DNA of 64,000 nt from the NCBI GenBank assembly GCA_964016885.1, contig OZ024741.1:2046001-2110000 (forward strand), in the 5' to 3' direction. This stretch comes from Eledone cirrhosa (Eukaryota). This document shows, in pieces, positions 1,740 through 33,684 of the stretch. The notes below the pieces were generated by a model that ran no database searches, was not told the DNA's origin, and saw nothing but the letters and a program-made list of their open reading frames with translations. The position numbers and the translations under genes are program-made. Every line of letters starts with the position of its first letter. Within the stretch, counting starts at the first letter, position 1.

Positions 1740-1774
<35 letters not shown>
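1740..1774. repeat. (GATA)n microsatellite at the 3' junction of Tx1 element 1
   Basis: About 8 GATA units directly abut the element's terminal ...TAAATAAAGAAA (minus strand). Confidence 0.95.
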
Positions 1775-1988
1775 TTCTTTATTTACCATAAAGGCATAAA
1801 AAGAAGGGACAAATACAAAGGGGGAGTTTACATATAATCGAGTAAAAAGGGTGTAACATGAAAATAATCGAAAATAACCTCAAAAGGGAGGGGACGTGAT
1901 GGGGGTTGCACACACCCCCGAAAAAGTGTGCAATCCTTTGCCCGGGGAGCACATGGAGAAGGTGCTCCCCTCTCCTTTACTTCTTTAC

Positions 1989-4900
1989 CTACAGGATGGT
2001 ATACAGAGAAGGCCCATTTACACGAGCCATTCTCGCCACTATCACCCACCTTTCATAAAACTGCCTGTGGCCAAGCACCTCTCTCTCCATTCTTATCCTT
2101 CTTCCGAAGTGATATCGGAAGAAGTAGACCAGACTATGGCCAGAGAGGAAGTTGCCTGACCTCAGACCTTTCAATCGTGTCCACCAAACAACCTCTTTCA
2201 ACATGGCTATTACGCACAGAAAAACCGCCTTTGCTTCCTTTGTGAAGAGGGGAGGCGGTTTGATTGTCATCACGGACTCGGCGGTCAATTTAATCGGCGC
2301 CACCCGCGACAGCAGTTGTTCGGCGTAGCCCCACAGATCAGCCACGCCCGGACATTGCACCAATGCGTGCGCTACGGTTTCTTCGTGACGCACGCATCTA
2401 GGGCAAATCTTTTTTGAGGGATCCCTGCCCGGGCGCCCGTGTCTGTAGAGCCTCTCTCGAACGGGTAGAGCCCCTCGGTAGCACTGCCAGGCCAGTGACT
2501 TCTGGAAGTTGTCCATTGGTCCTGGGCCGAAAGTCCTACCGAACAGGCTGGCCAGTTCGTCTTCTTCCATGTCCAGCGACTCTCCAAGGGTGTCATCGCC
2601 CCTGCTAGCCACCAGCCCTCTATAGAATGATGAGGTGGATTCTCCACCGATGGCCTGGCCCGCTTGCCAGAGAGCCCTGAGCGCCTGAGCACACTCAGTG
2701 TGCCAGTCTCCCAGTTTTCCGGATCTTTGCTTGACCCAGGACTGCAGCTCGGTGAGTGAGACGAGTCTCGGAAAGGCTCGTTTCACGAACGGAGCCCACA
2801 CCGGTTGACCAGTGAGGAATACCTGTAGGTGCCGTAGCCTTAATGCGTGCCTACGCATCATCAACCACGGCATCCCCAGCCCTCCTTTCGAAGGTTGTTG
2901 GCAGCAGATGGATCTTCTCACCATAGGAGGACGCTTCTTCCAAAGAAATTGGAAGAGCATGCGTTCCATGGTGGTGAGTGTTTCCTTAGGGCAAGGCACG
3001 ACAGTCAGGCGGTAGTAAGTGACGGACGCTATGTAAATGTTCGCCACCTCCGCCCGGCCTTTTAGGGACAGCTTACACTTGGCCCATTTCTGGGTTAGTG
3101 CAAACACCTTGTTCGTAACCTCGTTCCAGTTCTTTTCCACCTGGAGGTCCGGTCCAAACCAGACCCCAAGCAACTTTACCGGGCCCTCCGTCCAGTGTCC
3201 GACGACACCGTCAGGAGGCATCGGTTTGCCTCTCCACGTTCCGAGTTGCAGCCCGATGGATTTTTCCCGGTTCAGTTTCGCTCCTGACAACCTTTCGTAC
3301 TCCTCCAGTAAGGTACCGATCGCCTCGATCTCCGAGTCGGTTGATACCATTACTGTTACGTCATCGGCGTAGGCCGACACCGCTTTGCTCAATCCTGGTT
3401 CCAGGGGGATGCCCTGCAACAACTCCAACTTCCTCAGTAAAGGCTCGAGAGTCAATACGTACAGAAGGGAGGAGAGAGGGCACCCCTGTCGAATGGATCG
3501 TGTGATTTCGAACGGCTTCGAAAGGTAGCCGTTCACCTTGATCCTAGAACAGATGTGGTTGCTATGTAGGGCAGTGATCCAGCCTCTGAAAACAGGACCG
3601 AACCCAGCCGCCGCTAGCACCGCATCCAGGTAACCATGGTCGACCCTATCGAAGGCCTTAGACTGATCCAAGTTGATCAGGGCCCCACCGAAGCCGGGTT
3701 TGTTGCCAACCCTCTCTATGATGTATCGCATGAGGTGGAGGTTATCGTGAATGGACCTGGATGGGATAGCACATGTCTGCGCATCTCCCACCAGGCCACC
3801 CACGACAAGCGCCAACCTCTTTGCTAACACCTTGGCCAAAATCTTTAACTCTGTGTTTAGCAGGGTTATGGGCCGAAAATTATTTATACTATCCCCCTTG
3901 TTCTCGTCCTTCCTCACCAGCGTGACTACGCCCTTGGCTACAGAACAAGGAATTCTCCCGTTCTGCTGCCAATTGCAGTAGACCGCTTCGAGGAGTTCGG
4001 AGAAGAAGACCGGCATTGCTAAATAAAGTTCGTAAGGTATACCATCGAGACCTGGAGATTTGCGTCTGCTGCATTGGCTCAGCGCATCTCCGATCTCATC
4101 AGCCGAGATTGGTCCCCCGCAGGACTCTGCCTCTTTGTTCGAGAGACGCGGCAGGCCGTCGAGGTATGGACCGAAATCCACGCCCCGGCCCGGACCCTCG
4201 CCTCCCCCGAACAATCGGGCAAAGTGCTTTTGAAAGGCCTCGCACATCTGCTTAGGCTCCCGGATCACTCGTCCATCTTCGTCTTGCAACGACCGGATGG
4301 TGGATCGATTTCCACTCTTAGCTTCTGTCACGCGGGCCCATCCAACGGCTTTGGCCCCCTCATTACCTAGAGCACGTATTTTACTTCGAATGACGCAGCC
4401 TTCATGCTTTGCATCGAAAAACTGGTTCAAGGCCGTCCTCGATGCCAGCACTCTGGCCACATCTTCGCTCTTGATTGCCTCTTCTAATTTACCTGTTAAT
4501 TCTTTCTCGTTTCTATTCCTATCGGTAGCTAACATCTTGCTATAACTTATTGATTCTGTTCTAATCTCTCTTTTGAGAGATGCCCACCATCGGTTGTTGA
4601 CGATTGCACCCGTCAACCTCTCCTTAACTAATCTGCTAATCCGGTTTCTGTAAGTCTCTTTTGCCGGTAGAGACAAATTAAGTTTCCAGTAACCGGGACC
4701 CTGTCTATGTGTTTTCTCGAGATTGACCACGCAGGTCACTAATTTGTGATCCGTGTAGCCAACCGTGCGCATTTCTGGACAGCTTAATATGTCCCTATCC
4801 TTACTTCTAACTAAGAATCTATCTAAGTACGATCTAGATTGACCACTGTGGTTTCTCCAAGTCCAGGTAGGCACAGTTGGAAAATCTAGTCGATATCTAT

Positions 4901-5426
4901 CGATCAAGTTAAAACGGTCGAGTAACCCCTTGAGGCTGTTACACCCCCCTCTATTAGGACATGCTCCTGCATAGTCCCAACGTGCATCCAGGATGTCATT
5001 CCAATCCCCCGCTAGAAGCAGGGAACGCGACGTTCCCAGAAAAGTCTCTAAACGCTGGAAGAAGTCGGGCCGTTCAGCTCCGAAAGGGGAGTAGACGGCG
5101 ACCAGTCTCAAGGACGCACTTTCACTACTGCCAACGTCTAGCACCAACAAACGACCCTCCGGGTCTGAGTGCACAACCTGTACGGCAAGACCCAGGTGTT
5201 TTTGCAGCAGTACGACAACCCCACCCCCACCTCCAGGTTGACAGAGAGATGCATGCACCTCAAAGTCATCGAAGGTGGGGGCCAGCTGCCGCATGACGCT
5301 GATTCGAGTCTCACAGATAACCATTACATTTATACTACATGACCTGAGGTCATTTAGAAGCTTTGCTTGCTTCCAAGTTGAGCCCAGGCCACGTGCATTC
5401 AAACATCCTACTCTTAACACATCCAT
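1989..5426 (-). CDS. ORF2: APE endonuclease + reverse transcriptase + C-terminal Cys/His finger (1145 aa, intact)
   Basis: LNARGL, ICETR, GDWN, SYLDRF, TDHK (APE); SPGLDG, FRPITLLN, DQSKAFDRVDH, RQGCPLS, YADD (RT); [22 protein letters not shown] is typical of the Tx1/L1 clade. Confidence 0.95.
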   Translation of the reverse strand: MDVLRVGCLNARGLGSTWKQAKLLNDLRSCSINVMVICETRISVMRQLAPTFDDFEVHASLCQPGGGGGVVVLLQKHLGLAVQVVHSDPEGRLLVLDVGSSESASLRLVAVYSPFGAERPDFFQRLETFLGTSRSLLLAGDWNDILDARWDYAGACPNRGGCNSLKGLLDRFNLIDRYRLDFPTVPTWTWRNHSGQSRSYLDRFLVRSKDRDILSCPEMRTVGYTDHKLVTCVVNLEKTHRQGPGYWKLNLSLPAKETYRNRISRLVKERLTGAIVNNRWWASLKREIRTESISYSKMLATDRNRNEKELTGKLEEAIKSEDVARVLASRTALNQFFDAKHEGCVIRSKIRALGNEGAKAVGWARVTEAKSGNRSTIRSLQDEDGRVIREPKQMCEAFQKHFARLFGGGEGPGRGVDFGPYLDGLPRLSNKEAESCGGPISADEIGDALSQCSRRKSPGLDGIPYELYLAMPVFFSELLEAVYCNWQQNGRIPCSVAKGVVTLVRKDENKGDSINNFRPITLLNTELKILAKVLAKRLALVVGGLVGDAQTCAIPSRSIHDNLHLMRYIIERVGNKPGFGGALINLDQSKAFDRVDHGYLDAVLAAAGFGPVFRGWITALHSNHICSRIKVNGYLSKPFEITRSIRQGCPLSSLLYVLTLEPLLRKLELLQGIPLEPGLSKAVSAYADDVTVMVSTDSEIEAIGTLLEEYERLSGAKLNREKSIGLQLGTWRGKPMPPDGVVGHWTEGPVKLLGVWFGPDLQVEKNWNEVTNKVFALTQKWAKCKLSLKGRAEVANIYIASVTYYRLTVVPCPKETLTTMERMLFQFLWKKRPPMVRRSICCQQPSKGGLGMPWLMMRRHALRLRHLQVFLTGQPVWAPFVKRAFPRLVSLTELQSWVKQRSGKLGDWHTECAQALRALWQAGQAIGGESTSSFYRGLVASRGDDTLGESLDMEEDELASLFGRTFGPGPMDNFQKSLAWQCYRGALPVRERLYRHGRPGRDPSKKICPRCVRHEETVAHALVQCPGVADLWGYAEQLLSRVAPIKLTAESVMTIKPPPLFTKEAKAVFLCVIAMLKEVVWWTRLKGLRSGNFLSGHSLVYFFRYHFGRRIRMEREVLGHRQFYERWVIVARMARVNGPSLYTIL

Positions 5427-5459
5427 GTGGGCGGCAGAGCCAAAGGAGAGTGTAGAGAC

Positions 5460-7341
5460 CTACCTTTCCGCTTCCCGGGGTTCGGGTTGCACGACTTCCA
5501 TGGGGTCGGGGGTGTTGGGTGAAGGGGTGTCTTGTGGTGGTGTGGGGTCGTCAGTGTGTGGTGGGGTTGGGGTGTTTGGAGTTGTGTTGGGGAGGGGAAG
5601 GGGAGGGGGAAAGCTTTTTAGTAGGACGCGGTTTATGGGTTTGACAGAGGGTGGTTCTACGTCCTCCTTAAAATCCTTTTTTTAGTTTTTGGTAGAGGTT
5701 CATTGGGATTTTTATTAGTTTTAAATGTGGGTGGTTTTCTGACGAAACAAAGTTTACACCTTCGGTTTGTACCGAAGGATTATTGTATATGAGTTCATTT
5801 AATTTATTATTGTTTCTGTTGATGTAAGTATAGTGTAATGTCTTTTTTTCCGATGGTGTGAGTGTTTCGAAGAGGGGAGGGGCAGGTTTGGTTTTGTTTG
5901 TTGCTTGAGGGGTGTTTTCTGTTTTGTTGGATTGTGTTGCGATTTGGGTGGGGGTTGTTTGTCCTTGTGTGTTTTGCACATGTTTTCTTTTTTTCCTTTT
6001 AATCTGTCTGAAGGACTCCGTTTCTTCCTCCGAATTCGTTGGGTTATCTTCAGTGTTGGAGGGAAGAGGTATGTTTGCTGGTAATGTTTCCGTGTTGGTT
6101 TTCTTTGTGGGGGAGATGGATGTCACTATGTTAGACTGTGTTGTGTGTTGTGTCTGCGGTGGTTGTGTTGTTTTATTGAGTGAGAGGTTGGGTGGGCCTG
6201 TATTTTGTTTTGGGGGTAATGTGTTGTGACTGTTTGTGTTGTGGTGGTGTTGTGGTTTTACTGAGGGACGGGTTGGGTGGGACTGAGTTTTGTTGTTTGT
6301 TTATCTGTTGTGGTGGTGGTGGTGGTGGAGCTGGTGTTGGTAGCAGGGTTTTCTTTTTGTTGAGTTGGGGACAAGCGGCCTTCAGGTGCCCTCTGCCTGC
6401 ACAGATATGGCAGGACGGCCTTCTCCCCTCCACGCTAATGTTTATATACCCGTGGTCCTCTAATAGGATTCTGTCGGGTATTTGGGCGATGCGTTCAGGC
6501 TTCATTTGTACTACCAGCTCTATACCTGTTCCACTGAACGCATTGCCTGTGGTTTTCCCAATGGAAATCACGTTGTCATTCACTGGATCGATGAAGCCAG
6601 CTATGAGCCAGCAGTAGTCCACATCTGGCATCATTGCATCCAGCCATATGCGTTGAGTTTTTTTTCCCATATAAGATGGATAAAAGGTGAAACTTTTCGA
6701 ACGAATCGGTGACAAAGCACATTTTTTTGCCGCCGATTCGTTCTTCATGATAATTGCTAGGCTTCCATACAGTCTGTCTTTTCTTATGAAAGTTGTTTCA
6801 TTCAGTACTTCTGTGAGTACTGTTTTGATATCTGCTTGAGAAGGCTGTTCAGGTTGTTTTGTACTGTTGTTGATGGTCCGAAACTTGACCGTTCGGCTTT
6901 CAATGTCTTTCGTGAATTCTTGAGGTATTTTTACCAATAAAATACCATTCTCACCTTCACTTATGTATTGTTTTGCGTCCGTGATCCTTCGTACCACATC
7001 TGAAATGTTTTCCGCTATATAAGTCAAAGATTTCTTTGTTTTCTGTGCAAATGAAATCTTGTCGTCTGCTTTGTTTTCTGATATGGTGTTATTTTCAACT
7101 GTTATTTTTTTGTTTGTTGTGTCTTTGTTTGTGTTATTAGTATTGTCATGCAATTTTTCAAATTTTTTTTTTCGTTGTTGGAATCCAAGTCCAGATTTAT
7201 GTTTTCGTCATTTAATTTTTTCTCCGCAGATTCGTCCGTTTTTATTTTCATTTTTCCTTCCTTCTCTATGACGTTAGTTGGGAAGGAAGGGAGGACTAAA
7301 GCGTGCGAGCTTACAACTCTTACCGCTGTCCCCCCCACCAC
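5460..7341 (-). pseudogene. ORF1 (gag-like nucleic-acid-binding protein), split by frameshifts
   Basis: Track ORFs 7102-7341, 6173-7153 and 5668-6126 plus a tail ending MEVVQPEPREAER*. Contains CHICAGRGHLKAAC (CX2CX4HX4C) and is homologous to ORF1 of copies 2 and 3. Start position uncertain. Confidence 0.8.
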
Positions 7342-7598
7342 TATTTTCGTTCGCTGCGTTTAACATTTCTGTTAGACGATTGAAATTTTTTTACACAAAA
7401 TTTTTTAAAACAGGTTTTTCACCTCTAGGAGGGGTAAAGATGAGCTGACCCACCGCCTGACAGTTCAGACGGAGGGTCAAGCTACACAATTGTATCAAAA
7501 TTAAGTTTGAACTCACAAAATTTCCTCAATAAATTTGAACAAAACTTCTGTGCGAAGTGAATGACATCCACACTGTAGAACAGACGACAGCTAGATTA

Positions 7599-7601
<3 letters not shown>

Positions 7602-7641
<40 letters not shown>
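7602..7641. repeat. (GATA)10 between Tx1 copies 1 and 2
   Basis: Direct read of the sequence. Confidence 0.95.
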
Positions 7642-7880
7642 TGTTTCTTTATTAGCCACAGGGGCACAAAAGAAGGGGACAAATACAAAGGGGGAAGTTT
7701 ACATACAATAAAAACGTGTAAAATGTTATCACAAATGCAATTTAAAAAATTAGTCGATTTTCCCCAATAGGGAGATACAGTTCATATGGGTAACACATAC
7801 CCCCGAAAAAATGTGAAACCCTCATCTCCAGGAGTACGAAGAGTTTGTACTCCTTTCCTCTCCTCCTCCTTTTCCTCAAC

Positions 7881-10800
7881 CTACAGGCTGGTATAGAGAG
7901 AAGGCCCATTCACTCGGGCCATTCTCGCAACTTTCACCGACCTTTCATAAAACTTGCTGGGGTACAGCACCTCTCTCTCCATCCTGATTCTTCTTCCAAA
8001 GTGGTATTTGGAAAAAAGAATCAGTTGTTGGCCGGAGAGAAAGGTGTCTGACCTCAGCCCTTTCAACCTTGTCCACCATACAACCTTTTTCGCCATAGCT
8101 ATCAAAGGAAAACCGCCTCTCCTTGGTTTTTGAAGGAGGGTGGCGGTTTGATCATGACAATGGACTCGGTGGTCAACCGGATTGGTCCAACCCGCGACAA
8201 TAGTCGTTCTACATAGCCCCACAGGTCAGTGACGCCCGGGCAGTGTATGAATGCGTGCGCGACGGTTTATTCGTTACGCACGCACCTCGGACAGATCTTT
8301 TTTGCAGGGTCCCTGCCCGGGCGCCCATGTCTGTAGAGCTTGTCTCGAACTGGTAGAGCTCCTCGGTAGCACTGCCAGGCCAGGGACTTTTGGAAGTTGT
8401 CCATCGGTTCCGAGCGGAAGGTCCTACCGAACAGACTGGCCAGTTCATCTTCCTCTACGCCTAGAGTTTCACCGAGCGTCGTCGCACTTGCTGCGGATCA
8501 ACCCTCTATAGAATGACGAAGAGGAGTCTCCACTGATCGCCGGGTCCGCCTGCCAGAGGCCTGTGAGCGCCTGAGCACATTCGATGTGCCAGTCACCCAT
8601 TTTCCTCGGTCTTTGCTTGACCCAGGACTGCAGCTCGGTCAGCGAGACGAGTCGTGGGAAGGCTCGCCTCACGAACGGGGCCCACACCGGTTGTCCGGTG
8701 AGGAATACGTAGAGATGCCACAGTCTGAGCGCGTGTTTGTGCATCGTCAACCACGGGATCCCCAGCCCTCCGTTAGAAGGGTGTTGGCAGCAGATGGATC
8801 TTCTCACCAAAGGAGCCCGCCTCTTCCAAAGGAATTGGAAGAGCACGCGCTCCATTTTGGAGAGCGTTTTGGCTGCACAAGGCACGACGGTCAAGCGGTA
8901 GTAGATGGCGGACGCTATAAAAGTGTTCGCCACCTCCGCTCGACCTTTCAAGGATAGTTTGCACTCGGCCCACTTCTAGGTGAGTGCAAACACCTTGGCC
9001 GTCACCTCGTTCCAGTTCTTCTCCACCTGGAGGTCCGAACCAAACCAGACCCCGAGCAGCTTTACTGGTCCTTCCGTCCAGCGTCCGACGACGCCATCGG
9101 AAGGCATCGGTTTGCCTCTCCACGATCCGAGTTGCAAACCGATGGACTTGTCCCGGTTCAGCTTCGCTCCTGTGAAACTTTCGTATTCCTTCAGTAAGGT
9201 GCCGACATCCTCGATTTGTGAGGCGCTCGACACCATTACTGTCACGTCGTCGACGTAGGCCGACGCCGCTTTCCGCAGTCCCGGTTCCAGAGGGATGCCC
9301 TGCAATAGCTCCAACTTCCGCAGTAGTGGCTCGAGAGTCAGTACGTACAGAAGGGAGGAGAGAGGGCATCCCTGTCGAATGGATCGCGTAATATGGAACG
9401 GCTCCGAGAGGTAGCCGTTCACCTTGACCCTTGAGCAGGTGTTGCTGTTGTGCATTGCAGCAATCCAGCCCCTGAACACAGGTCCGAAGCCTGCCGCCTC
9501 GAGCACCGCATCCAGGTAACGATGGTCAACCCTATCGAAAGCCTTAGACTGATCCAACTTGATCAGGGCCCCACCGAAGCCGGGTTTACACCCTACCCTC
9601 TCTATGATGTATCGCATGAGGTGGAGGTTGTCGTGTATGGACCTGGTCGGGATTGCGCATGTCTGCGCTTCTCCCACCAGGTTTTCGACGACAAGCGCCA
9701 GCCTCTTTCCCAAAACCTTGGCCAAAATCTGTAACTCTGTGTTTATCAGAGTTATGGGCCGGAAGTTGCCTATGTCATCCCCCTTATTCTCGTCCTTCCT
9801 GACTAGTGTGACCACGCTCCCGGTTACAGAACTGGGAATTCTCCCGTTCTGTTGCCAGTTGCAGTAGACTGCTTCCAGGAGACCGGAGAATAAGTCCGGC
9901 ATTGCTACGTAAAATTCGTAGGGTAGACCGTAGAGACCTGGAGATTTGCGTTTGCCGCATTGGCTCAGCGCGTCCCCTATCTCAGCGGCTGAAATCGGCT
10001 TTTCGCAGAACTTTGCCTCGCTGTCCGAGAGTCGCGGTAGGCCGTCGAGGTATGGACCGAAATCCATAGCCCCTCTCGGCGCGCCGCCCCGCCCGAACAG
10101 TTGAGCAAAGTGCCGCCGAAAGGCCGCACACATCTGCTTCGGCTCACGTATCATGCGTCCGTTTTGGTCCTTCAAAGACCGAATCGTGGACTTGTTGCCA
10201 CTTTTTGCCTCCGTCACTCGGGCCCAGCTAACAGCTTTGGCTCCCTCGTTTCCCAGAGCACGTATTTTGCTTCTGACAACGCAGCCCTCGTACTTTGCGT
10301 CGAAGAACTGGTCCAAGGCCGTTCTAGTTGCTAGCACGCTGGCTACGTTGCCACTTCTAATTGCCTCTTCTACTTTATCTACCAGTTCCTTCTCGGTTCT
10401 ATTTCTATCTAACGCTAATTCTTTACTAAAAACTAACGAGTCTAATCTAACTGCCCTCTTGAGAGACTACCACTATCTGTTGTTGACAATGGCCCCTGTC
10501 AAGTGCTGTTTAACTAAAGTGCTAATCCGTCTACTGTAGGCTTTGCTTGTCGGTAACGACAGGTTCAGCTTCTAGTAGCCGGGTCCCTGTCTATGGGTTC
10601 TATCACGGTTGGCCATGCAGGTCACTAGTTTGTGGTCTGAATAGGCAACCATGAACATTTGTGGACAGCTTAACATGTCCCTATCCTTATTTCTAACTAG
10701 AACCCTATCTAGGTACGATCTAGATTAGTCCACGTCCACAGTGGAACAGTCGGAAAATCTAGTCGATATCTATCGGCCAGGTCAAATGTGTCGATTAACT

Positions 10801-11299
10801 GTTTGAGGCTGTTACACCCCCCTTTATCGTGACATGCTCCCACATAGTCCCAATGTGCATCTAGGATTCCATTCCAGTCCCCCACTAAAAGCAAGGAGCG
10901 GGACGTTCCCAGAAAAGTCTCTAGACGTTTGAAGAAGTCTGGCCGCGGTGTCCCGGATGGGGCATATGCGGCCACCAGCCTGAAGGCTCCACCTTCACTA
11001 CCGCCAACCTCTAGGACCACCAGTCGACCCTCCGGGTCCAGATGTACCGTCTGTGTTACGAGGCCCAGGTGTTTCCGCAGCAAAACGGCAACGCCGCCCC
11101 CACCTCCCGGTTGACAGAGAGATGCGTAGATCTCAAAGTCATCGAAGATGGAGGCCAGCTGTCGCTCGCTGTGGATCCTGGACTCGCAAATGGCTACCAC
11201 ATCCATACTGTGCGATCTGAGGTCGTTTAAGAGTTTGCCCTGTTTCCAGAGCATCCCCAGGCCACGTACGTTCACACATCCAACTTTTATATTGGCCAT
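7881..11299 (-). pseudogene. ORF2 (APE-RT) with stops and frameshifts
   Basis: Fragments 10709-11299 (APE), 8976-10337 (RT, YVDD), 8469-8951 and 7881-8222 are colinear with ORF2 of copy 1. Confidence 0.92.
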
Positions 11300-11332
11300 G
11301 TTGGTGCTGAAAAGTTAAAAGAGGAAAAGAGA

Positions 11333-13251
11333 TCACTCACCCTTCGTCTCCTGGGGACCAGGCTGCACGATTTCCATGGGGGTGTTGGAGGGGTTGTCTG
11401 GGTGGTGGTGGTTTCCGGCGGGGTGGGGACGTAGATGTTTGGTGGGGTGGGGTCTGGTGGGATGGGGGCGTCTGGGGTGGGGAGACATTTGATAAGGACG
11501 CGGTTAAGTGGTTTCGCGCAGGAATTCCCCACATACTTTTCAAATGTTTCTTTTAGGGACCTATAAGTTTGTATAGGGACCCTAATCAGTTTTAGGTTCA
11601 GTTTTTTTGTTATTTTTAATAGAGTGGGCGAAAGTTTTCCCTTCGGATTTCACCGAAGGGTCGTTCGTGATGGTCTCGATTAGTGTTTTGTTTTCAGTGT
11701 TTATGTAAGTGTAAGTGTAATTTTCTTGTGTTGTGTTTGTTTTTGTCTGTAGTTCTTGTGTGTGCTTTCGTTTTGTTGTAGGTATTTTGTTTTCAGGAGG
11801 TGTGGGTTTTGTTTGTGATGTTTTTGTTGTTTGTGTTGGTGGTTGTATGTTTGTGGTAGTGTTTGCTGGTTTTTTGCTTTTGTGATGTCTTTTCTTTCTT
11901 TTCGAGCGATGGGGTCTCCCTCGTCTTCACTTGGGGATGGCGAGATAGCCTCATCTGTTGTATCGTCTGTGTGATTGGGGAGGGGTATGTCTTGGGGAGC
12001 TGTTGTGTCTGTATGTGATTTTGCAGTGGTTTTAGGTGGAGTGGGGTTGGGTGGGACTGTGTTTGTTGTGGTTATTGTTGTGTGTTGGTGTTGTTGTTGT
12101 GGTGGTGTTGGTGGTTGTGTTGTTTTGACGGGTGTCGGCAGAAGAGCCTTTTTTTACTCATTAATTTAGGACAGGAAGCCCTCAGGTGACCCCTGCTAAA
12201 GAAATGGTAACATGAGGGCCGCCTACCCTCAACCGAAAAGTTTATGTAGGTGAGTCCGTCCAGGAGTACACGTTGTAGGATCATAGCTATTCGCTCTGGG
12301 CTCATTTGCACCAGAACTTCAACGCTAGTCCCATTGAATACATCTCTGGGGGACTTTCCTTCTGACAGTATTCTGTCTTCATCAAAATTGATGAAGCCGC
12401 ACAGTATCCACCATATGTTCACCTTTGGTGTGACACTCGTGATTTTAATCTTTTGTGTCCTTTTTCCCATGTATGTGGGGAAAAAGGTATACAGGTTGGA
12501 TACAATTGGCGACACAGAGTAATTTTGGGCCGTCAATTGATCCTTCATCAGTACCGAAATACTCCCAAAGAGTTTGCTTCTTTGAATGAATGCAATATCA
12601 TTCATTGAATTTTTGAAAACCAGTTCAATTTCTTTCTGCGACAATTGGACTGGTTTTCGGGTAGAATTGGAAACTGTCCTAAAACCTATCGTTTTGAGAG
12701 CAGTTTCCTTGCGAATTTCTACCGGAGAATTGATGCTGAAAGCACCATTTTTTTCGAAAGTGACATATCTCCTAGCGTCCTTTAAAAGTTGTTCGGCATT
12801 TGTTATGTCGAGATATGTCAGTTCCTCCTTTTTTTGAACTGTCTGTGCAAAGGAGATTTTGGTTTCTTTGTGGAATTATCCGTGTTGGTGGTATTGTCAT
12901 TATTGTTGTTATTGTTGTTGTTATTCTTGTTGTCACTGATGTTGATATTATTCGTATTTTCCTTGATGTTGGTGTTGTTGTTGTCTTTCATGCTGGTGTT
13001 ATTGGTGTTGTCTTTATTTTTTCTTTGTTGTTGTTGTCATTGTTGTTTTTATCATCATTATTGGTGTTGTTGTTATTTTTGTTGTCATTGAACTGTTTGG
13101 TGTCATTTGTGTTGTTTGGATATGAATTTGTTTTTACATTTTCATTTCGTCTTTCCATCTCCATAGTATCTAGAGAAGAAGACGATGTTGACTACGAGCT
13201 ATGTAGTCTTACCGACTCTCCACCACCATTATCAATGAACGCAGCGTTCAT
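11333..13251 (-). pseudogene. ORF1, disrupted
   Basis: Fragment 12072-12644 (FFPTYMGKRTQKI, SVEGRRPSC; knuckle mutated to CYHFFSRGHLRASC). C-terminus reads MEIVQPGPQETKGE*. Start position approximate. Confidence 0.78.
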
Positions 13252-13483
13252 AACGTAATCAAACTTCTTACGATATTTTTTCAAAAATTCGATGGAGCAA
13301 AAATTTTTTCAAACGAATATTTCGCCCCTGTAGGGGCGAAAATGAGTTGACCTACCACCTGAAGATCCAGACGGGGGGTCAAGTAACACAATAATATAAA
13401 ATTTAACTGAAAACTCACGTTTTTTTCTTACATAAAATAACGGAAACTTCTCCGCGAAGTTACACACGTCTGGTAGAAAGAGA

Positions 13484-13502
13484 GATAGATAGATAGATAG
13501 AT
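13484..13502. repeat. (GATA)4-5 between Tx1 copies 2 and 3
   Basis: Direct read of the sequence. Confidence 0.9.
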
Positions 13503-13735
13503 TTCTTTATTAGCCACAAGGGCGCAACAAGAAAGGGGACAATACAAAGACATGCCGGGGATTTTACATACAGTCGTGTAAAAAATATAAAAACAAACAA
13601 TTTCAACAATCGAAATCCCCAATAGGGGGGAGGCGCCACAAATGGGTTGTTTAATACCCCGTCGATAGAACAACCCTCAACTCAAGGAGCGTGTTGTGCA
13701 AGTGCTCCTTTCTTCCTTTTGCTCTCTTCCTCAAC

Positions 13736-16700
13736 CTACAGGCTTATAAACAGAGAAGGCCCAATCACTCGGGCCATTTTCGCTTCATTCACCCACCTTT
13801 CAGTAAATTTACTGGGGTGCAGTGCCTCTCTCTCCACCCTGATTCTCCTTCTAAAGTGATACTTAAAGAATGGAATCAATTGTTGTCCGGAGAGAAAGGC
13901 ATCTGTCCTCAGTCCTCTCAACCTCGTCCACCATATAACTTCTTTCACCATAGCCACCGTACAGAGGAAAACCGCCTCTCTTTCGTTTTTGAAAGAGTCT
14001 GGCGGTTTGATCCTTACTATGGACTCGGAAGTCAACTGTATTTGTCCCATACGCGACAGCAGTTGTTCTGCATAGTTCCACAGGTCGCTTGCGCCCGGGC
14101 AGTGTACAATTGCGTGTAGAACTGTTTCAATGTCCTGCGCACATCTTGGACACGTCCTCTTGGAAGGATCCCTGCCAGGGCGTCCGTGCCTGTAGATCTT
14201 GTCACGAACCGGTAGAGCTCCTCGGTAGCACTGCCAGGCCAGGGACCTCTGGAAGTTGTCCATAGGTCCCGGGCGGAAAGTCCTACCAAACATACTGGTG
14301 AGCTCATCGTCTTCGACGCCCAGAGTCTCTCCGAGCACGTCGTCGCCCTTGTAACGTACAATCCCTCTATAGAATGTCGAAGTGGAGTCTCCACTGATTG
14401 CTGCGCCCGCTTGCCAGAGGACTGTGAGCGCCTGAGCGCATTCAATGTGCCAGGCGCCCATCGTTTTCGGTCTTTTCTTCACCCAAGACTGCAGCTCCGT
14501 TAGCGAGACGAGCTGTGGGAAAGCCTGTCTCACAAACGGTGCCCACACCGGTTGGGGGTCGGTGAGGAATACCTGGAGATGCCGCAGCCTCAGCGCATGT
14601 TTGCGCATCATCAGCCACGGCATTCCCAGCCCTCCGTTGGAAGGGTGCTGACAGCAGACGGATCTCCTCACCAGCGGAGCCTGCTTCTTCCACAGAAACT
14701 GGAAGAGCATGCGTTCCATCTTGGTGAGGTGTTCACGGGGACAAGGCACGACAGTCAAGCGGTAGTAGATGACGGACGCTATGAAAGTGTTCGCCACCTC
14801 CGCTCGGCCTTTCAAGGACAGTTTGCACTCTGCGCACTTCTGAGTGAGTGCAAACACCTTGGCCGTGACCTTGTTCCAGTTTTTCTCCACCTGGAGGTCT
14901 GGACCGAACCAGACCCCGAGCAATTTCACCGGTCCGTCCGTCCAGCGTCCAACGACGCTGTCGGATGTCATCGGTTTGCCTCTCCACGTACCGAGTTGCA
15001 AACCGACAGACTTGTCTGGGTTTAGTTTTGCTCCCGTCAGCGTTTCGTATTCTTTCAGTATGTTGCCGATCACCCCGATTTCCGAGGTGCTCGACACCAT
15101 TACTGTCACGTCGTCGGCATAAGCCGACGCCGCTTTGCGCAGTCCCGGTTCTAGGGGGATGCCCTGCAACAGCTCCAATTTCCGCAGTAGTGGCTCTAGA
15201 GTCAATACATACAGAATGGAGGAGAGAGGGCATCCCTGTCGAATGGAACGCGTGATTGCGAACGGCTCCGATAGGTAGCCGTTCACCTTGACCCTCGAGC
15301 AGATGCTGGTGTGCATCGCCTCGATCCATCCTCTGAACACGGGACCGAAACCGGCCGCCTTGAGAACCGCTTCCAAGTATCGATGGTCGACCCTATCGAA
15401 TGCCTTAGACTGATCCAAGTTGATCAGAGCCCCACCGAAGCCGGGTTTACTACCCACCCTCTCTATGATGTATCGCATGAGGTGGAGGTTGTCGTGTATG
15501 GACCTGGTCGGAATTGCACACGTTTGCGCTTTCCCTACCAGGTTCTCGACGACAAGCGCCAACCTCGTCGCTAGCACCTTGGCCAAAATCTTTAACTCTG
15601 TGTTGAGCAGAGTTATGGGCCTGAAGTTGTTAATTTCGTCCCCCTTGTTCTCGTCTTTCCTGATCAGCGTTACTACGCCCTTGCCTGCAGAACTGGGAAT
15701 TCTCCCGTTCTGCTGCCAATTGCAGTAGACGGCTTCGAGGACGCTAGAGAACAAGTCCGGCATGCCTATGTAAAATTCGTAGGGTAGACCATCTAGACCG
15801 GGTGACTTGCGTTTCCCGCAGCGGCCCAGAGCGTCCCGTATCTCAGTGTCCGTGATCGGTCTTTCGCAGAACTCGGCGTCCGTGTTCGAGAGACGCGGCA
15901 GGCCGTCGAGGTATGAACTAAAGTCCATTGCCCCGTTCGGCTCACCGTCGTTCTGCTCAAACAGTCGCGCAAAGTGCCGCTGAAAGGCCGCGCACATTTG
16001 CCTGGGGTCAAGTAGCACGCGTCCGTTTTGGTCTTTCAAAGACCGAATCGTGGACTTGTTGCCACTTTTTGCCTCCGCCACTCGGGCCCAGCTGACAGCT
16101 TTCGCTCCTTCGTTTCCTAGAGCACGTGTTTTGCTTCTGACCACGCAGCCTTCGTGTTTCGCATCGAAGAACTGGTCCAGTGCCGTTCTCGACGCTAACA
16201 CTCTAGCCGCGTTGCCACTTCTAAGTGCCTCCTCTACCTTGGCTACTAGTTCTCTTTCTATTCTGTTCTTCTCTAAGGCTAACTCTCTGCTATACCCTAT
16301 CGATTCTATTCTAATTGCTTTCTTGAGAGAGTACCACCATCTATTGTTGACGATGGCTCCCGTTAACTGTTGCTTGACTAGTTTACTTATCCGTTCACTG
16401 TAAGCTTTACGTGCCGGCAACGACACGTTCAGCTTCCAGTATCCGGGACCCTGTCTATGTATTCTATCACGGTTGACTAAGCAGACGACTAACTTGTGAT
16501 CTGAATAGGCAACCATGTGCATTCGTGGACAGCTTAACATATCCTTGTCCCTTTCTCTAATGAAGAACCTATCTAAATACGATCTAGATGTCCCACTGCG
16601 GTTTACCCACGTCCACTGTGGTGCAGTCGGGAAATCCAGTCGATACCTATCGGCCAGTTGGAATTGGCCGATTAAAGTTTTGAGGCTGTTGCACCCCGCT

Positions 16701-17182
16701 CTACTGGGACATGCTCCCACATAGTCCCATCGTGCATCTAGGATACCATTCCAGTCCCCCACTAAAAGTAAGGAGCGAGACGTTCCCAGAAAAGACTCTA
16801 GACGCTTAAAGAAGTCTGGCCGTGATTGCGATTGCCCGGTCGGGGCATAAACGGCCACCAGTCTGAAGGCTCCACCTCCGATACTGTTCACGTCTAGGAC
16901 TACCAGTCTACCCTCCGGGTCCAAGTGTACTTGCTGTACTCCGACGTCCAGGTTCTTCCGAAACATAACAGCCACTCCACCTCCACCTCCTGGCTGACAG
17001 AGAGATGCGTAGATCTCAAAGTCGTCGAAGATGGGGGTTCGTTGCTGCCTGTTGTGGATTCTGGACTCGGTGATGGCTATCACATCCATACTGTGTGACC
17101 TAAGGTCGTTTAAAAGTTGGCCCTGTTTCCAGGGCATCCCTAGGCCACGCACATTCACGGTTCCAACTCGTAAACCAGCCAT
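13736..17182 (-). CDS. ORF2: APE endonuclease + RT + Cys/His finger (1148 aa, intact)
   Basis: VNVRGL, GDWN, SDHK, GPGYWKLN, FRPITLLN, KAFDRVDH, RQGCPLS, YADD, CPRC..ETVLHAIVHC. Confidence 0.95.
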   Translation of the reverse strand: MAGLRVGTVNVRGLGMPWKQGQLLNDLRSHSMDVIAITESRIHNRQQRTPIFDDFEIYASLCQPGGGGGVAVMFRKNLDVGVQQVHLDPEGRLVVLDVNSIGGGAFRLVAVYAPTGQSQSRPDFFKRLESFLGTSRSLLLVGDWNGILDARWDYVGACPSRAGCNSLKTLIGQFQLADRYRLDFPTAPQWTWVNRSGTSRSYLDRFFIRERDKDMLSCPRMHMVAYSDHKLVVCLVNRDRIHRQGPGYWKLNVSLPARKAYSERISKLVKQQLTGAIVNNRWWYSLKKAIRIESIGYSRELALEKNRIERELVAKVEEALRSGNAARVLASRTALDQFFDAKHEGCVVRSKTRALGNEGAKAVSWARVAEAKSGNKSTIRSLKDQNGRVLLDPRQMCAAFQRHFARLFEQNDGEPNGAMDFSSYLDGLPRLSNTDAEFCERPITDTEIRDALGRCGKRKSPGLDGLPYEFYIGMPDLFSSVLEAVYCNWQQNGRIPSSAGKGVVTLIRKDENKGDEINNFRPITLLNTELKILAKVLATRLALVVENLVGKAQTCAIPTRSIHDNLHLMRYIIERVGSKPGFGGALINLDQSKAFDRVDHRYLEAVLKAAGFGPVFRGWIEAMHTSICSRVKVNGYLSEPFAITRSIRQGCPLSSILYVLTLEPLLRKLELLQGIPLEPGLRKAASAYADDVTVMVSSTSEIGVIGNILKEYETLTGAKLNPDKSVGLQLGTWRGKPMTSDSVVGRWTDGPVKLLGVWFGPDLQVEKNWNKVTAKVFALTQKCAECKLSLKGRAEVANTFIASVIYYRLTVVPCPREHLTKMERMLFQFLWKKQAPLVRRSVCCQHPSNGGLGMPWLMMRKHALRLRHLQVFLTDPQPVWAPFVRQAFPQLVSLTELQSWVKKRPKTMGAWHIECAQALTVLWQAGAAISGDSTSTFYRGIVRYKGDDVLGETLGVEDDELTSMFGRTFRPGPMDNFQRSLAWQCYRGALPVRDKIYRHGRPGRDPSKRTCPRCAQDIETVLHAIVHCPGASDLWNYAEQLLSRMGQIQLTSESIVRIKPPDSFKNEREAVFLCTVAMVKEVIWWTRLRGLRTDAFLSGQQLIPFFKYHFRRRIRVEREALHPSKFTERWVNEAKMARVIGPSLFISL

Positions 17183-17223
17183 GTTGGTGAAGAGAAGTTG
17201 GAGAAAAAGGACGAAAGGTGCAC

Positions 17224-19104
17224 TTACCTTTTCGTTTCCTGGAGATCGGGTTGTTCAATCTCCATTTGGGTGCTGGATGGGGTGTTGGGTGGGGTGGGGA
17301 AACCTTTCAACAGGACGCGGTTGATGGGCTTGTGGCAGGGGTTGCCCACGTCCTGTGAAAATTTAATTTTCAAGTCTTTATAGGTTTCCATAGAAACCCT
17401 TATAAGTTTAAGGTGTGGAGACGATTCTGCCTTGACGAAAGTTTTGCCCTCCGTCTCCACCTTGGGGTTTTGGGAGATGACCTCCATCAAACTCTTGTTG
17501 TTTGTGTTGATGTATGCGTATTGTTGTTTGTGTTTTTGTTGTATTGTTTTAGTTTGTTGTTCATCTGGTAGTTTTCTTTTTATGGTGGGTGCTTGTGTTT
17601 GGGGTGGTGTTGGTGCTGGTTTTGCTGATAGGGGGGTGTTTGACTGTGGTGTTGTTTGTGTTGTTGTTTGTGTCTGTGGTTGTGTGTTGGTGTTGGTGAT
17701 TGGAGTTTTGGGGGTTTTGTGGTGTCTCTTTTTTTTGTTTTTTGGATTTCCGCGGTTCTCCCTCTTCTTCACTTAAAGAAGGAGAAGCAGCTTCATCCGT
17801 CGATGAATAATCATCGTCAGGTGTGTGGGGTAAGGGTATGTTGTGTGGTGGTGGTTGTGTTTCGGTATGTGTGTTTGTGGTAGTGTTTGATGGAGTGGGA
17901 TGGAGTGGGGATGTGTTCTTCAGGGGTGTTGTCTCTGTTTTTTCTGTTGTTGTTGGTTGAGTGTCTGTTTGTTTTGGTGTGGTTGCTCGTTTCGTCTGTC
18001 GTTGTACTTGTGGTGGTGGTGGTGGTTGTTTTGGTGTTGGTGTTGGTAATAGCGTTTTTTTTTATGATGTTGCTGTTGTGTGTTTGTGGACAAGAGGCTT
18101 TTAGGTGAGATGTGCTACCACAGCGAAAGCAGTGAAATTTTCTTCCTTCTACCGAAATGTTTATTTTGTTGTTATTATCAATAACGACTCTTTCGGGTAT
18201 TTTGGAGATTCTCTCCGGTTTCATTTGCAACAGAATCTCCAAATCGGTGCCCGCCCACCTTTGTCGAATGGATTTTCGTATCGAAAGTATTATGTCTGTT
18301 TCTGGCTCTACGAAGCCAGCCAAGATCCACCAGATGTTAATGCTTGGAGGTATGTTTTTTATTTTTATTTTTTGTGTCCTTTTCCCCATGTATGTAGGGA
18401 AAAAGGTGTATGCTTTTGACACTATTGGTGTCACAGAGTTTTTTTGGGGCCAGTGTCTCGCTTTTAAACAGTACGGAAACGCTTCCGTACTGTTTTCCTC
18501 GCTGGAGAAAATCGACATTTGCTAGAATCTCCTTGAAAGAATCTTCTATATCTGACTGATTAACAAATGTCGGTTTTCTTGACGAATTTGACACAGTCCT
18601 AAAAGTGACTGATCGGCGGTTTGTGTCTTCCTTTATTTCAAGGGGTGAGTTAATTCTAAACCCACCTCTTTCTTCGAAAGTTACAAATTTTCTCCCTTGC
18701 TGGAGCATATCTCTTGCGTTGGAGATATCAAGATTTATAAAATCTTGTTTCTTGTTGACTGTGTCAGCAAAAGACATTTTCTTTTTTTGTGTGATGTTGT
18801 TGTTGATAATGATGTTATCGTTGTTGGAAATTGTATGTGTAGATGTATCTGTAGAGTTGTTGATGTCTTTTTCATGTGTATGTATGTCAATGGGTTTTTT
18901 TGCCGTGTTTTCCCGTGTGTTATTGTCATTTTTCTCCGCTTCGGCGGTAGAAATTGTAACATTTTCAAATGTTGATATATTTTTTTCTTTTGTGACAGTA
19001 TCTATGGCAACGTCCATAGCAGCAGAAGCAGATATAACGTTAATATCTGCCTCTTTCTCTCTCTTTTCACTATTAACGTTCTCCAGCGTTCTAGTGTTGC
19101 TCAA
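17224..19104 (-). pseudogene. ORF1, split by frameshifts
   Basis: Track ORFs 18337-19104, 17817-18518 (CFRCGSTSHLKASC) and 17224-17772 (ends MEIEQPDLQETKR*). Confidence 0.8.
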
Positions 19105-19314
19105 GTTTTTTTTACTTTGTAAAATTGGATATTTTAAGACAAACTTTTAAATAAAATTTTCGCCCCTACAGGGGCGAAAAATGGGATTACCACCCAGCTG
19201 ACAATTCAGCTTGGGGGTTAATCTACAAAGTGTTGTATTTTTTTCAAACAATTAGATCGGTTTTTTGCATAGAAATTAACAAAAAACTTACCGGCGATAT
19301 TCCACACGTTAGAC

Positions 19315-19319
<5 letters not shown>

Positions 19320-19372
<53 letters not shown>
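19320..19372. repeat. (GATA)13 at the 5' junction of Tx1 copy 3
   Basis: Direct read; no Tx1 element lies beyond it. Confidence 0.95.
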
Positions 19373-19373
<1 letters not shown>

Positions 19374-20094: not shown

Positions 20095-20780
20095 TAACAG
20101 ATATATTAGGAACAGAGATCTGTTAGTATTTTAATACAAAAAATATGTTAGTTTATTAGTATAGTAGATCCGGAATTATAATATATTAGTATATTAGTGT
20201 ATTAGATGTTAGTATATTAGTATAGACGATCTGTTAGTATATTAGTATAGACGATCTGTTAGTATATTAGTATAGACGATCTGTTAGTATAGTAATAAAG
20301 AGTTTCTACTTTTGGCACAAGGCCAGCGATTGCCCCAGTGCGTTACTGGTACTTTATTTTATTGACCCTGTAAGGATGAAAGGCAAAGTTAACCTCAGCG
20401 GGATTTGAACTCAGAATGCAAAGGGCCATAACTCTATGCTGCAAAGCATGGTGTCTGACGCTCTACCGATACTGGCAAACCACCACCCTGTTAGTATAGT
20501 AATATGACTGATCTGTTAGTATAGTAATATGAGAGATCTGTTAGTATAGTAATATAGACGATCTGTTAGTATAGTAATATAGACGATCTGTTAGCACATT
20601 AGTATAGACGATCTGTTAGTATATTAGTATAGACGATCTGTTAGTATATTAGTATAGACGATCTGTTAGTATATTAGTATAGACGATCTGTTAATATATT
20701 AGTATAGACGATCTGTTAGTATATTAGTATAGCTGATCTGTTAGTATAGTAATATGAGAGATCTGTTAGTATATTAGTAA
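20095..20780. repeat. 25-bp minisatellite (TTAGTATATTAGTATAGACGATCTG)n interrupted by a SINE
   Basis: More than a dozen tandem units, best conserved at 20210-20297 and 20488-20780. Confidence 0.9.
20302..20487 (-). mobile_element. tRNA-derived SINE with a Nin-like core
   Basis: Minus strand shows a box A-like head, box B GAGTTCAAATCC, core TTTGCCTTTCATCCTT...TAAAGTACCAG and tail GGCCTTGTGCCAAAAGTAGAAAC. Flanked by a 17-bp direct repeat (20281-20297 and 20488-20504). Further copies or fragments near 25260, 25598, 40320, 40577, 44370, 49494, 49850, 55092 and 62225. Confidence 0.85.
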
Positions 20781-24757: not shown

Positions 24758-24785
24758 GGGTTTTTACATTGTCCATTTACCATTC

Positions 24786-24897
24786 TGCTCTGAGGAAACA
24801 GTGGTCACAGCATTGGATATTCGAGTTCTGCAAATACTTGTGAATTTGCACGTAGCGGAACTAGGCTGCAGTACCACCGTGGAAACACTTGTAAGCA
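24786..24897 (+). ncRNA. Type I hammerhead ribozyme motif with long stem II
   Basis: tgct-CTGAGGA-[~85 nt, GTGGT..ACCAC]-GAAA-cacttg-TA-agca. Confidence 0.7.

Positions 24898-32164: not shown

Positions 32165-32172
<8 letters not shown>
31552..32172. repeat. Near-perfect palindrome (310-bp arms, centre 31862) made of PLE D-family pLTR
   Basis: Arms match the terminal repeats of the PLE at 56683-59018. Contains a CTGACGA-tgttgca..tgcaac-GAAA core at 31922. Confidence 0.9.
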
Positions 32173-32246
<74 letters not shown>

Positions 32247-32286
32247 AATATATATGTATATGTGTATGTGTGTGTATATCTATCTA

Positions 32287-32532
<246 letters not shown>

Positions 32533-32538
32533 CTATAT

Positions 32539-33510
32539 GAGAGTGCCCAGGCGCTCACCGCCCTCTGGCAGGCGGATCCGGTTATCAGTGGAGACTCCAC
32601 CGCAACATTCTATAGAGGGCTGGTACGCAGCAGGTGCGACGACGCCCTCGGAGAAGCCCTAGACATGGAGGAGGACGAACTGGCCAGCCTGTTCGGTAGG
32701 ACATTCAGCCCGGGACCTATGGACAACTTCCAGAAGTCCCTGGCCTGGCAGTGCTACCGAGTGGCTTTACCCGTTCGAGAAAGGCTCTACAGACACGGGC
32801 GCCCGGGTAGGGACCCCGCCAAAAAGATCTGTCCCAGATGCGTGTGCGACGAGGAAACCGTTGCACACGCATTGGTACACTGCTCGGGCGTAGCCGATCT
32901 GTGGAGCTATGTCGAACAACTGCTGTCAAGGGTGGGACCGATCCGGTTGACCACCGAGTCTATTGTAATGATTAAGCCGCCTCCCCCCTTCAAAGATGAA
33001 GCAGAGGCGGTGTTTCTGTGCGTAATAGCCATGGCGAAAGAGGTTGTATGGTGGACGCGTCTGAAAGGACTGAGGTCAGGCACCTTTCTCTCTGGCCAAC
33101 AACTGGTCCGTTTCTTCCGATATCATTTCGGAAGAAGGATCAGGATGGAGAGAGAGGTGCTGCACCCCAGCCGTTTCTATGAAAGATGGGTGAAAGTGGC
33201 GAGAATGGCCCGTGTGAATGGGCCTTCACTCTACATCAGACTATAGGTGAGGAAGATGAAAGACCAAGGGAGCACCCCTTCTCTGTGCTCCTGAGGAGAA
33301 GGGTTGCACACTTTTTTCGGGGGTGTGTGCGACCCCCCAAGGCGCCTCCTCTCTATTGAGGATTTTGTTATAAATTTTATTTTTTGTTATATCTTATTTT
33401 ATTTTTATATTTTGTTATTGCCTCCTCCTTATTGAGGACGCCTTTTTGTGTAAACTCCCCCCTTTGTACTTGTCCCACATTTGATGCCCTAGTGGCAAAT
33501 AAAAGAAACA
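32539..33510 (+). mobile_element. 5'-truncated Tx1-family copy 4 (ORF2 C-terminus 32539-33246 plus 3'UTR)
   Basis: [34 protein letters not shown] matches the ORF2 ends of copies 1-3. Ends GTGGCAAATAAAAGAAACA, followed by (TA)n. Confidence 0.93.
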
Positions 33511-33516
33511 TATATG

Positions 33517-33684
<168 letters not shown>

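Follow-up and report, generated by a model that had tools for sequence, protein, structure and literature searches.

Introduction

Several long interspersed nuclear elements (LINEs) are known to insert into short tandem repeats. Within the Tx1 clade, excerpts of the published descriptions place Kibi in (TC)n, Koshi in (TTC)n and crocodilian families in (TTCC)n or (TTTC)n (PMC4494074), and elsewhere Waldo is assigned to (ACAY)n, Mino to (AC)n and Dong to (TAA)n (PMC3812793), Togen to (TG)n (PMC4640811) and Tx1-1_ACar to telomeric repeats (PMC10088271), likewise in the parts of those papers available. Whether the enzyme or RNA pairing chooses the site is called not well understood in an excerpt of one of them (PMC3812793). 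Here we analyse a 64,000-nucleotide stretch of Eledone cirrhosa DNA (contig OZ024741.1 of assembly GCA_964016885.1, positions 2,046,001 to 2,110,000; hereafter the window), in which three LINEs of one family, E1, E2 and E3, are stacked in a (GATA)n microsatellite and a fourth copy, E4, lies in a (TA)n tract. With a probability of roughly 0.58, we read this arrangement as the product of a family that prefers (TCTA)n/(TAGA)n for insertion, with some tolerance for TATC-interrupted (TA)n, and whose copies E1-E3 arrived one after another; the preference looks real but relaxed.

Like Kibi, Koshi and the crocodilian Tx1 families in the portion of their description seen (PMC4494074), the window family is an L1-group LINE with an apurinic/apyrimidinic endonuclease (APE) and a reverse transcriptase (RT), inserted in a microsatellite that is present on both sides in a fixed orientation. 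Unlike Kibi and Koshi, its repeat unit, TCTA, is AT-rich and forms no pyrimidine tract, its host is a cephalopod, and three deeply diverged subfamilies occur at one site in addition to a relaxed fourth site. Waldo, Mino, Dong, Togen and Tx1-1_ACar resemble it in exploiting short tandem repeats, targets that are reusable and of low harm, but they represent other clades or units, and GATA/TATC is not among their targets in the excerpts cited.

Results

Three full-length LINEs share one (GATA)n site

An earlier note on this DNA, made by a model from the letters alone, had described three ~5.8-kb elements in the same orientation bounded by (GATA)n. This description holds, as E1, E2 and E3 measure 5827, 5842 and 5820 bp, all lie on the minus strand, and all six of their ends adjoin the repeat in a single orientation, with (TCTA)n on the sense strand (Table 1). 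The four (GATA)n runs of the array, only about 18-54 bp long, are also the only ones of at least four units in the 64-kb window, as the note had recognized for long GATA runs: outside the array, runs of at least 16 bp comprise 79 of (TA)n (3011 bp), 23 of (CA)n and none of GATA, and a single (TATC)3 is found at 32277. The repeat is not confined to the 3' ends but present at the 5' ends of E1-E3 as well, and the longest run closes the array on its 5' side, where no copy lies upstream; the DNA past 19373 matches neither the elements (by blastn) nor their 3'-end profile. Such runs at 5' ends, and above all the longest one with its lack of an upstream element, support the repeat as a target rather than a mere tail, as had been proposed for the run at 19320.

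The 3' ends of E1-E3 read ...AATAAAGAAA(CA) and run directly into (TCTA)n with no poly(A), again as first described, in the shared order of a small GCC-N5-GGY hairpin, AATAAA, GAAA(C) and the repeat. The 5' ends can be aligned, and a 5'-end profile finds all three; thus E1-E3 are all full length, and this part of the earlier description stands, but E2 is decayed and ORF1 is broken across frames in every copy. The open reading frame 2 (ORF2) of E2 carries four stops and three frameshifting indels, compared with none in E1 or E3. Sequencing reads mapped to 11600-19335 revealed, in other copies, an extra base at three places in E2 ORF1, so some of the ORF1 breaks are private mutations or assembly errors.

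Nucleotide identity among E1-E3 is 75-81% over ORF2 and the 3' untranslated region (UTR), and codon comparison of ORF2 gave a synonymous divergence (dS) of 0.54-0.86 with a ratio of nonsynonymous to synonymous divergence (dN/dS) of ~0.19; the five pairs computed with E4 included gave 0.53-0.86 and 0.19-0.22, respectively. Divergence of this depth under purifying selection indicates separately evolving active subfamilies rather than duplication in place. As far as sequence comparison goes, the data support E1, E2 and E3 as separate subfamilies of one LINE family that would have inserted independently, and these values and the unequal decay of the copies agree with the independent insertions proposed in the note. 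Its statement that ORF1s and UTRs differ strongly is borne out for the ORF1 cores (29-57% identical) but not for the 5' UTRs, which are clearly homologous (71% mean column identity in an alignment that includes repeat). Because the decayed copy is the middle one, the simplest order of arrival is that E2 probably came first and that E1 and E3 inserted later, into the flanking runs on either side.

A fourth copy lies in a (TA)n tract

The tally of three copies proved incomplete: over the window, the 3'-end profile matched E1-E3 and one further copy, E4, and no other. E4 is 82% identical to E1 in amino acid sequence, with a dN/dS of 0.20. Its 3' end reads ...AAAAGAAAC and is followed by (TA)n, which is found on its 5' side too, with no (TCTA)n tail. 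Since E4 lacks such a tail, the repeat is not a fixed tail of the family, and we rejected that interpretation of (TCTA)n. The two flanks of E4 match at 15 of 16 nt, a shared G interruption included, and this 16-nt match is a likely target-site duplication. Among 57 compound TA tracts in the window, a TATCTA/TAGATA unit occurs in three and tandem units in one, the tract 5' of E4; this association with tandem TATC was noticed after the fact and concerns one site. Relative to the element, the TATC units at E4 have the strand orientation seen in E1-E3. The strand-specific GATA/TATC targeting put forward in the earlier note thus finds support in the ends of E1-E3 and in the strand of the TATC units at E4, but strict specificity is weakened by the position of E4 in (TA)n.

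Table 1. Positions in the window of the LINE copies, their reading frames and the adjoining repeats (aa, amino acids; RRM, RNA recognition motif).
Feature	Position	Strand	Remarks
(GATA)8+	1740..1773	.	array 3' flank; sense strand of elements (TCTA)n; run 1740-1771, 8 units
E1	1774..7598	-	full-length APE-RT LINE without poly(A)
E1 ORF2	1989..5426	-	1145 aa, intact; APE endonuclease, RT, C-terminal CCHC motif; catalytic motifs present
E1 ORF1 region	5668..7207	-	two frames; predicted RRM-like core, CCHC knuckle, low-complexity linker, C-terminal conserved block
(GATA)10	7600..7641	.	between E1 5' end and E2 3' end; run proper 7602-7641
E2	7642..13483	-	full-length but decayed LINE
E2 ORF2	7884-11299	-	4 stops; frameshifts near 10725, 8477, 8103
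(GATA)4+	13484..13501	.	between E2 5' end and E3 3' end; run 13484-13499, 4 units
E3	13502..19319	-	full-length LINE; ORF1 in four segments within 17227-19146
E3 ORF2	13736..17182	-	1148 aa, intact
(GATA)13	19320..19373	.	array 5' end, no element beyond; run 19320-19371
Compound (TA)n tract 5' of E4	32168..32538	+	three TATCTA units including (TATC)3 at 32277, one at junction
E4	32539..33509	+	5'-truncated copy of a fourth subfamily; last 235 codons of ORF2 plus 3' UTR
(TA)n tract 3' of E4	33510..33599	+	

Placement of the family and its relatives

Pfam recognizes Exo_endo_phos, RVT_1 and zf-RVT in the ORF2 of E1 and E3, with catalytic motifs present, and the layout is that of the L1 group: an N-terminal APE, an RT and a C-terminal CCHC motif, with no RNase H in ORF2. 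In the PDB, ORF2 matches human L1 ORF2p best (E 6e-55), with R2 behind it. In the ORF1 of E1 and E3 a CCHC-type knuckle is visible, although its Pfam zf-CCHC match lies below the cut-off (E 0.15 and 0.045); the homologous ORF1 of a sister lineage (see below) is above it. ESM Atlas neighbours of ORF1 fall into zf-CCHC, RRM and ZCCHC3-RBD clusters at 0.90-0.92, which we take as a lead only, and Pfam gave no Transposase_22 match for ORF1. An ORF1 of the RRM plus CCHC type, not Transposase_22, is linked with Tx1 in an excerpt on the clade (PMC5203782), and the ORF1 found here looks like that combination. Together with the scores against Keno-like elements given below, this makes it likely that the window family falls within the Tx1 clade. 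It was set beside Kibi and Koshi by their published description rather than by sequence, and its (TCTA)n or (TA)n flanks differ from the TC, TTC, TTCC or TTTC that mark the Kibi/Koshi lineage proper.

A quick RT tree of 48 rows (two of 50 were dropped as too short) groups E1-E3 with P0001 (Shimodaira-Hasegawa-like approximate likelihood ratio test, SH-aLRT, 99) and places as their sister a clade of cuttlefish proteins and unnamed relatives (support 96); the two clades are joined with support of 100 on a long branch, and deeper nodes are weak. Among named proteins, the nearest matches come from Argonauta hians, at 60% and 73% identity, and from Acanthosepion pharaonis, at 53% and 37%, in keeping with a cephalopod, probably an octopod, as host; close fragments at 60-76% identity were also found among proteins. 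For Octopus vulgaris, the portion of the source seen reports 80 L1-Tx1 consensus sequences and 13 recently active families (PMC13282606), a set that may well include the window family; the word "target" occurs zero times in the text and the one supplement of that catalogue that were searched (PMC13282606).

Two distant L1-group elements, L008 and L004, share the ORF2 layout of E3 at about 29% identity and outscore human L1 ORF2p against E3 ORF2 (bit scores of 458, 405 and 189.5, respectively), but in the quick tree they form no supported grouping with the window family. Both are followed by U2 small nuclear RNA (snRNA) sequence (L008:5815-5977, L004:4675-4885) and are Keno-like, and L008 has, unlike the window family, poly(A) before the U2 sequence. 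Another distant L1-group element is followed by U1 snRNA sequence (L020:9202-9356) and is possibly U1-associated.

Among metagenome contigs, 55 relative loci were found, none above this level of ~29% full-length identity, and two scans of viral contigs yielded no relative. Part of E3 is present in 12 of the 16 sequencing runs listed, under nine coded organism labels and in eight studies, with no RNA run among the listed holders. Most labels other than A have small shares among these runs, and X1, X4 and X6 are among the runs mapped. The four runs mapped to 11600-19335 reveal a multi-copy family of many subfamilies, with depth far higher over ORF2 than over the 5' end; read rows at 13470-13513, the E2/E3 junction, were skipped as repeats, so that no flank was read, and depths do not equate to copy numbers.

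A sister lineage forms head-to-tail arrays without a microsatellite

A genome scan found 39 loci, 37 of them in one bacterial metagenome-assembled genome (MAG; G001). Its contigs contain animal DNA that is TA-rich (35% GC) and in which a relative of 6.4-6.9 kb, 40% identical to the window family in ORF2 amino acids, forms head-to-tail arrays. A motif search of 18 contigs, some with gaps, gave 65 3' ends; another copy follows within 1.5 kb at 58 of these, a contig end at three and unique DNA at four, and a microsatellite or poly(A) at none of the 65. Tail-less ends and stacking are therefore traits of the wider clade, whereas the microsatellite is not. Units are 92-99.9% identical within an array, and three of the 46 measured are 5'-truncated, with two truncated units of ~3.1 kb, counted between successive 3' ends, in contig C9. 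Since two truncated units have one common breakpoint, unequal crossover is possible, and the arrays could, from their sequence, owe much to it. A telomeric setting for these arrays was rejected, as unique flanks lie on both their 5' and 3' sides.

The G001 arrays comprise several subfamilies and lie between flanks of unique DNA, individual arrays reaching up to at least 70 kb (for example C9 20449-91473 and C19 55565-93470). The many contigs concerned (L056-L090, L093-L123), probably of decapod cephalopod origin, raise a contamination flag for this MAG, and L091, L092 and P0144 are further animal LINE sequences within prokaryotic MAG records. Just before AATAAA stands a 3-bp stem that encloses a 5-nt loop (CTTGT/CTAGT-like), both in the window copies (1780-1795, 7650-7665, 13510-13525 and 33485-33500) and at the G001 3' ends, the stem being flipped between the branches (GCC..GGC in the window, GGC..GCC in G001); the constancy of the motif in G001 is by construction, because it was part of the search pattern. 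The G001 3' ends have a second hairpin, in which pairing is kept across subfamilies.

Discussion

The proposed preference for (TCTA)n can be fitted to target-primed reverse transcription, in which the endonuclease nicks the strand complementary to the sense strand of the element and the nick primes cDNA synthesis. At the window sites the nicked strand would be (TAGA)n, and ORF2p would probably hold the RNA at the small 3' stem-loop just before AATAAA, the RNA being copied from a 3' end that would lack poly(A). RNA cleavage occurs 10-30 bases downstream of AATAAA, which here stands only 4-5 bases before the element end, so the RNA would carry two or more UCUA units. A few such read-through units may help by pairing with the primer; pairing of RNA with the target has been proposed for SART1 in the excerpt available (PMC7265360). 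Duplication inside the repeat would leave the new copy flanked by repeat on either side, and such a site would be reusable. The repeat on both sides in fixed orientation, at all six ends of E1-E3, is what characterizes microsatellite-specific Tx1 families; the excerpt on these elements requires one and the same repeat beside more than 20% of the copies in a genome (PMC4494074), and within the window three of four copies are flanked by (TCTA)n, at two sites only.

Several observations weigh against this preference. The immediate flanks of E4 are (TA)n, so that one of four copies lies outside a pure (TCTA)n run, and the evidence comes down to two sites, with four copies between them, in a single window chosen for its array. 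The sister lineage stacks head-to-tail without a microsatellite, so stacking within this clade needs none, and in shuffling tests the 3' hairpin does not reach significance (z -1.5 to +1.1). Moreover, in E1 and E3 the endonuclease hairpin loop counts 9 residues between its T and S anchors, against 11 in the sister lineage. The source, as excerpted, gives 11 residues for the sequence-specific Tx1L and TRAS1 and 9 enclosed by T192-S202 of L1-EN (PMC1950540); a 9-residue loop does not point to a stringent endonuclease, and any nicking specificity of the window family is putative.

An alternative is a broad preference for AT-rich microsatellites, at sites beginning AT(C/A)TAT, by which (TA)n would be as good as (TCTA)n and the array would be a local hot spot seeded by one early insertion. 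Not only does E4 lie in (TA)n, but all four 3' flanks, once an ambiguous A or CAT is set aside, are readable as starting with AT(C/A)TAT, and (GATA)n and (TATA)n differ by one base in four. We nevertheless consider such a broad preference unlikely, as (TA)n amounts to ~3 kb in the window and long (GATA)n is absent outside the array, yet three of four copies sit at one GATA site, and E4 chose the single TA tract with tandem TATC.

Less probable still, and in our view doubtful, is that the landing site is set by the RNA and not only by the endonuclease. A transcript continuing past AATAAA into the flank of its parent would pair with matching nicked DNA and place new copies beside old ones: an unadenylated 3' end would read a dozen or so flank bases and home to matching DNA, giving rise to self-arrays of up to at least 70 kb in the decapod-like sister branch and to a self-renewing (TCTA)n landing pad common to many subfamilies in the octopod-like window branch. 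(TCTA)n would then serve as tail as well as target, with no need for the endonuclease to recognize it. The sister lineage fits this scheme in that it lacks poly(A) and that another copy follows 58 of its 65 3' ends. After AATAAA, its arrays with different unique flanks have a tag of 11-18 nt in common (11-17 nt for C9, C19 and C4), its 5'-truncated units include some preceded by a complete 17-nt tag, and in C18 the 16-nt tag after AATAAA is repeated exactly in the 5' flank; the pairing proposed for SART1, as excerpted (PMC7265360), provides a precedent. However, the match between tag and 5' flank is only partial in three of four arrays (C19, C3 and C4), arrays whose units are 92-99.9% identical could be due to unequal crossover or assembly effects, the common breakpoint of two truncated units points to duplication, and the window sequence cannot separate tail from target.

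Tandem duplication of one copy followed by divergence, which we rejected, and a false assembly join between separate loci through (GATA)n are both very improbable, since, even though no listed contig spans the stretch, a dN/dS of ~0.19 at dS up to 0.86 together with two intact ORF2s excludes neutral decay after duplication, the runs are only about 18-54 bp long, and all ends would lie in (TCTA)n even after a misjoin.

Returning to a preference for (TCTA)n, the repeat targets listed in the literature excerpts comprise TC, TTC, TTCC/TTTC, ACAY, AC, TAA, TG and telomeric repeats (PMC4494074, PMC3812793, PMC4640811, PMC10088271, PMC5203782, PMC3747384, PMC1950540, PMC7265360, PMC13218726, PMC13282606, PMC13295347). 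No LINE targeting GATA/TATC was among the literature matches listed, a body of excerpts that did not cover Repbase Reports, so that an earlier description is possible, and a text search of the literature with four 3'-end motifs gave only unrelated matches. It is probable that (TCTA)n/(GATA)n represents a new repeat target, in a new host lineage, for the known microsatellite-seeking behaviour of Tx1-like elements. Tx1-type LINEs often change targets, and a new repeat unit is therefore an extension rather than a surprise. If the preference is true, a GATA/TATC target and, likely, a mollusc host would be added to the short list of repeat-seeking LINEs, and a class of common markers, cephalopod (GATA)n loci, would include LINE landing sites. 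The two sister branches, with endonuclease loops of 9 versus 11 residues, a target repeat versus their own junction, and a tail-less 3' end in both, form a natural pair for the choice of site by enzyme versus RNA pairing.

Other elements in the window

An Rfam search of the window gave no match. Just past the 5' flank of the array lies a 25-bp tandem repeat (window 20186-20779) of about 4 plus 12 copies. Broken ORFs resembling Penelope-type RT plus GIY-YIG elements, with weak Pfam matches (E 0.16 and 0.048), occur at window 22935-24804 on the minus strand and at 34999-36899 and 56850-58472 on the plus strand.

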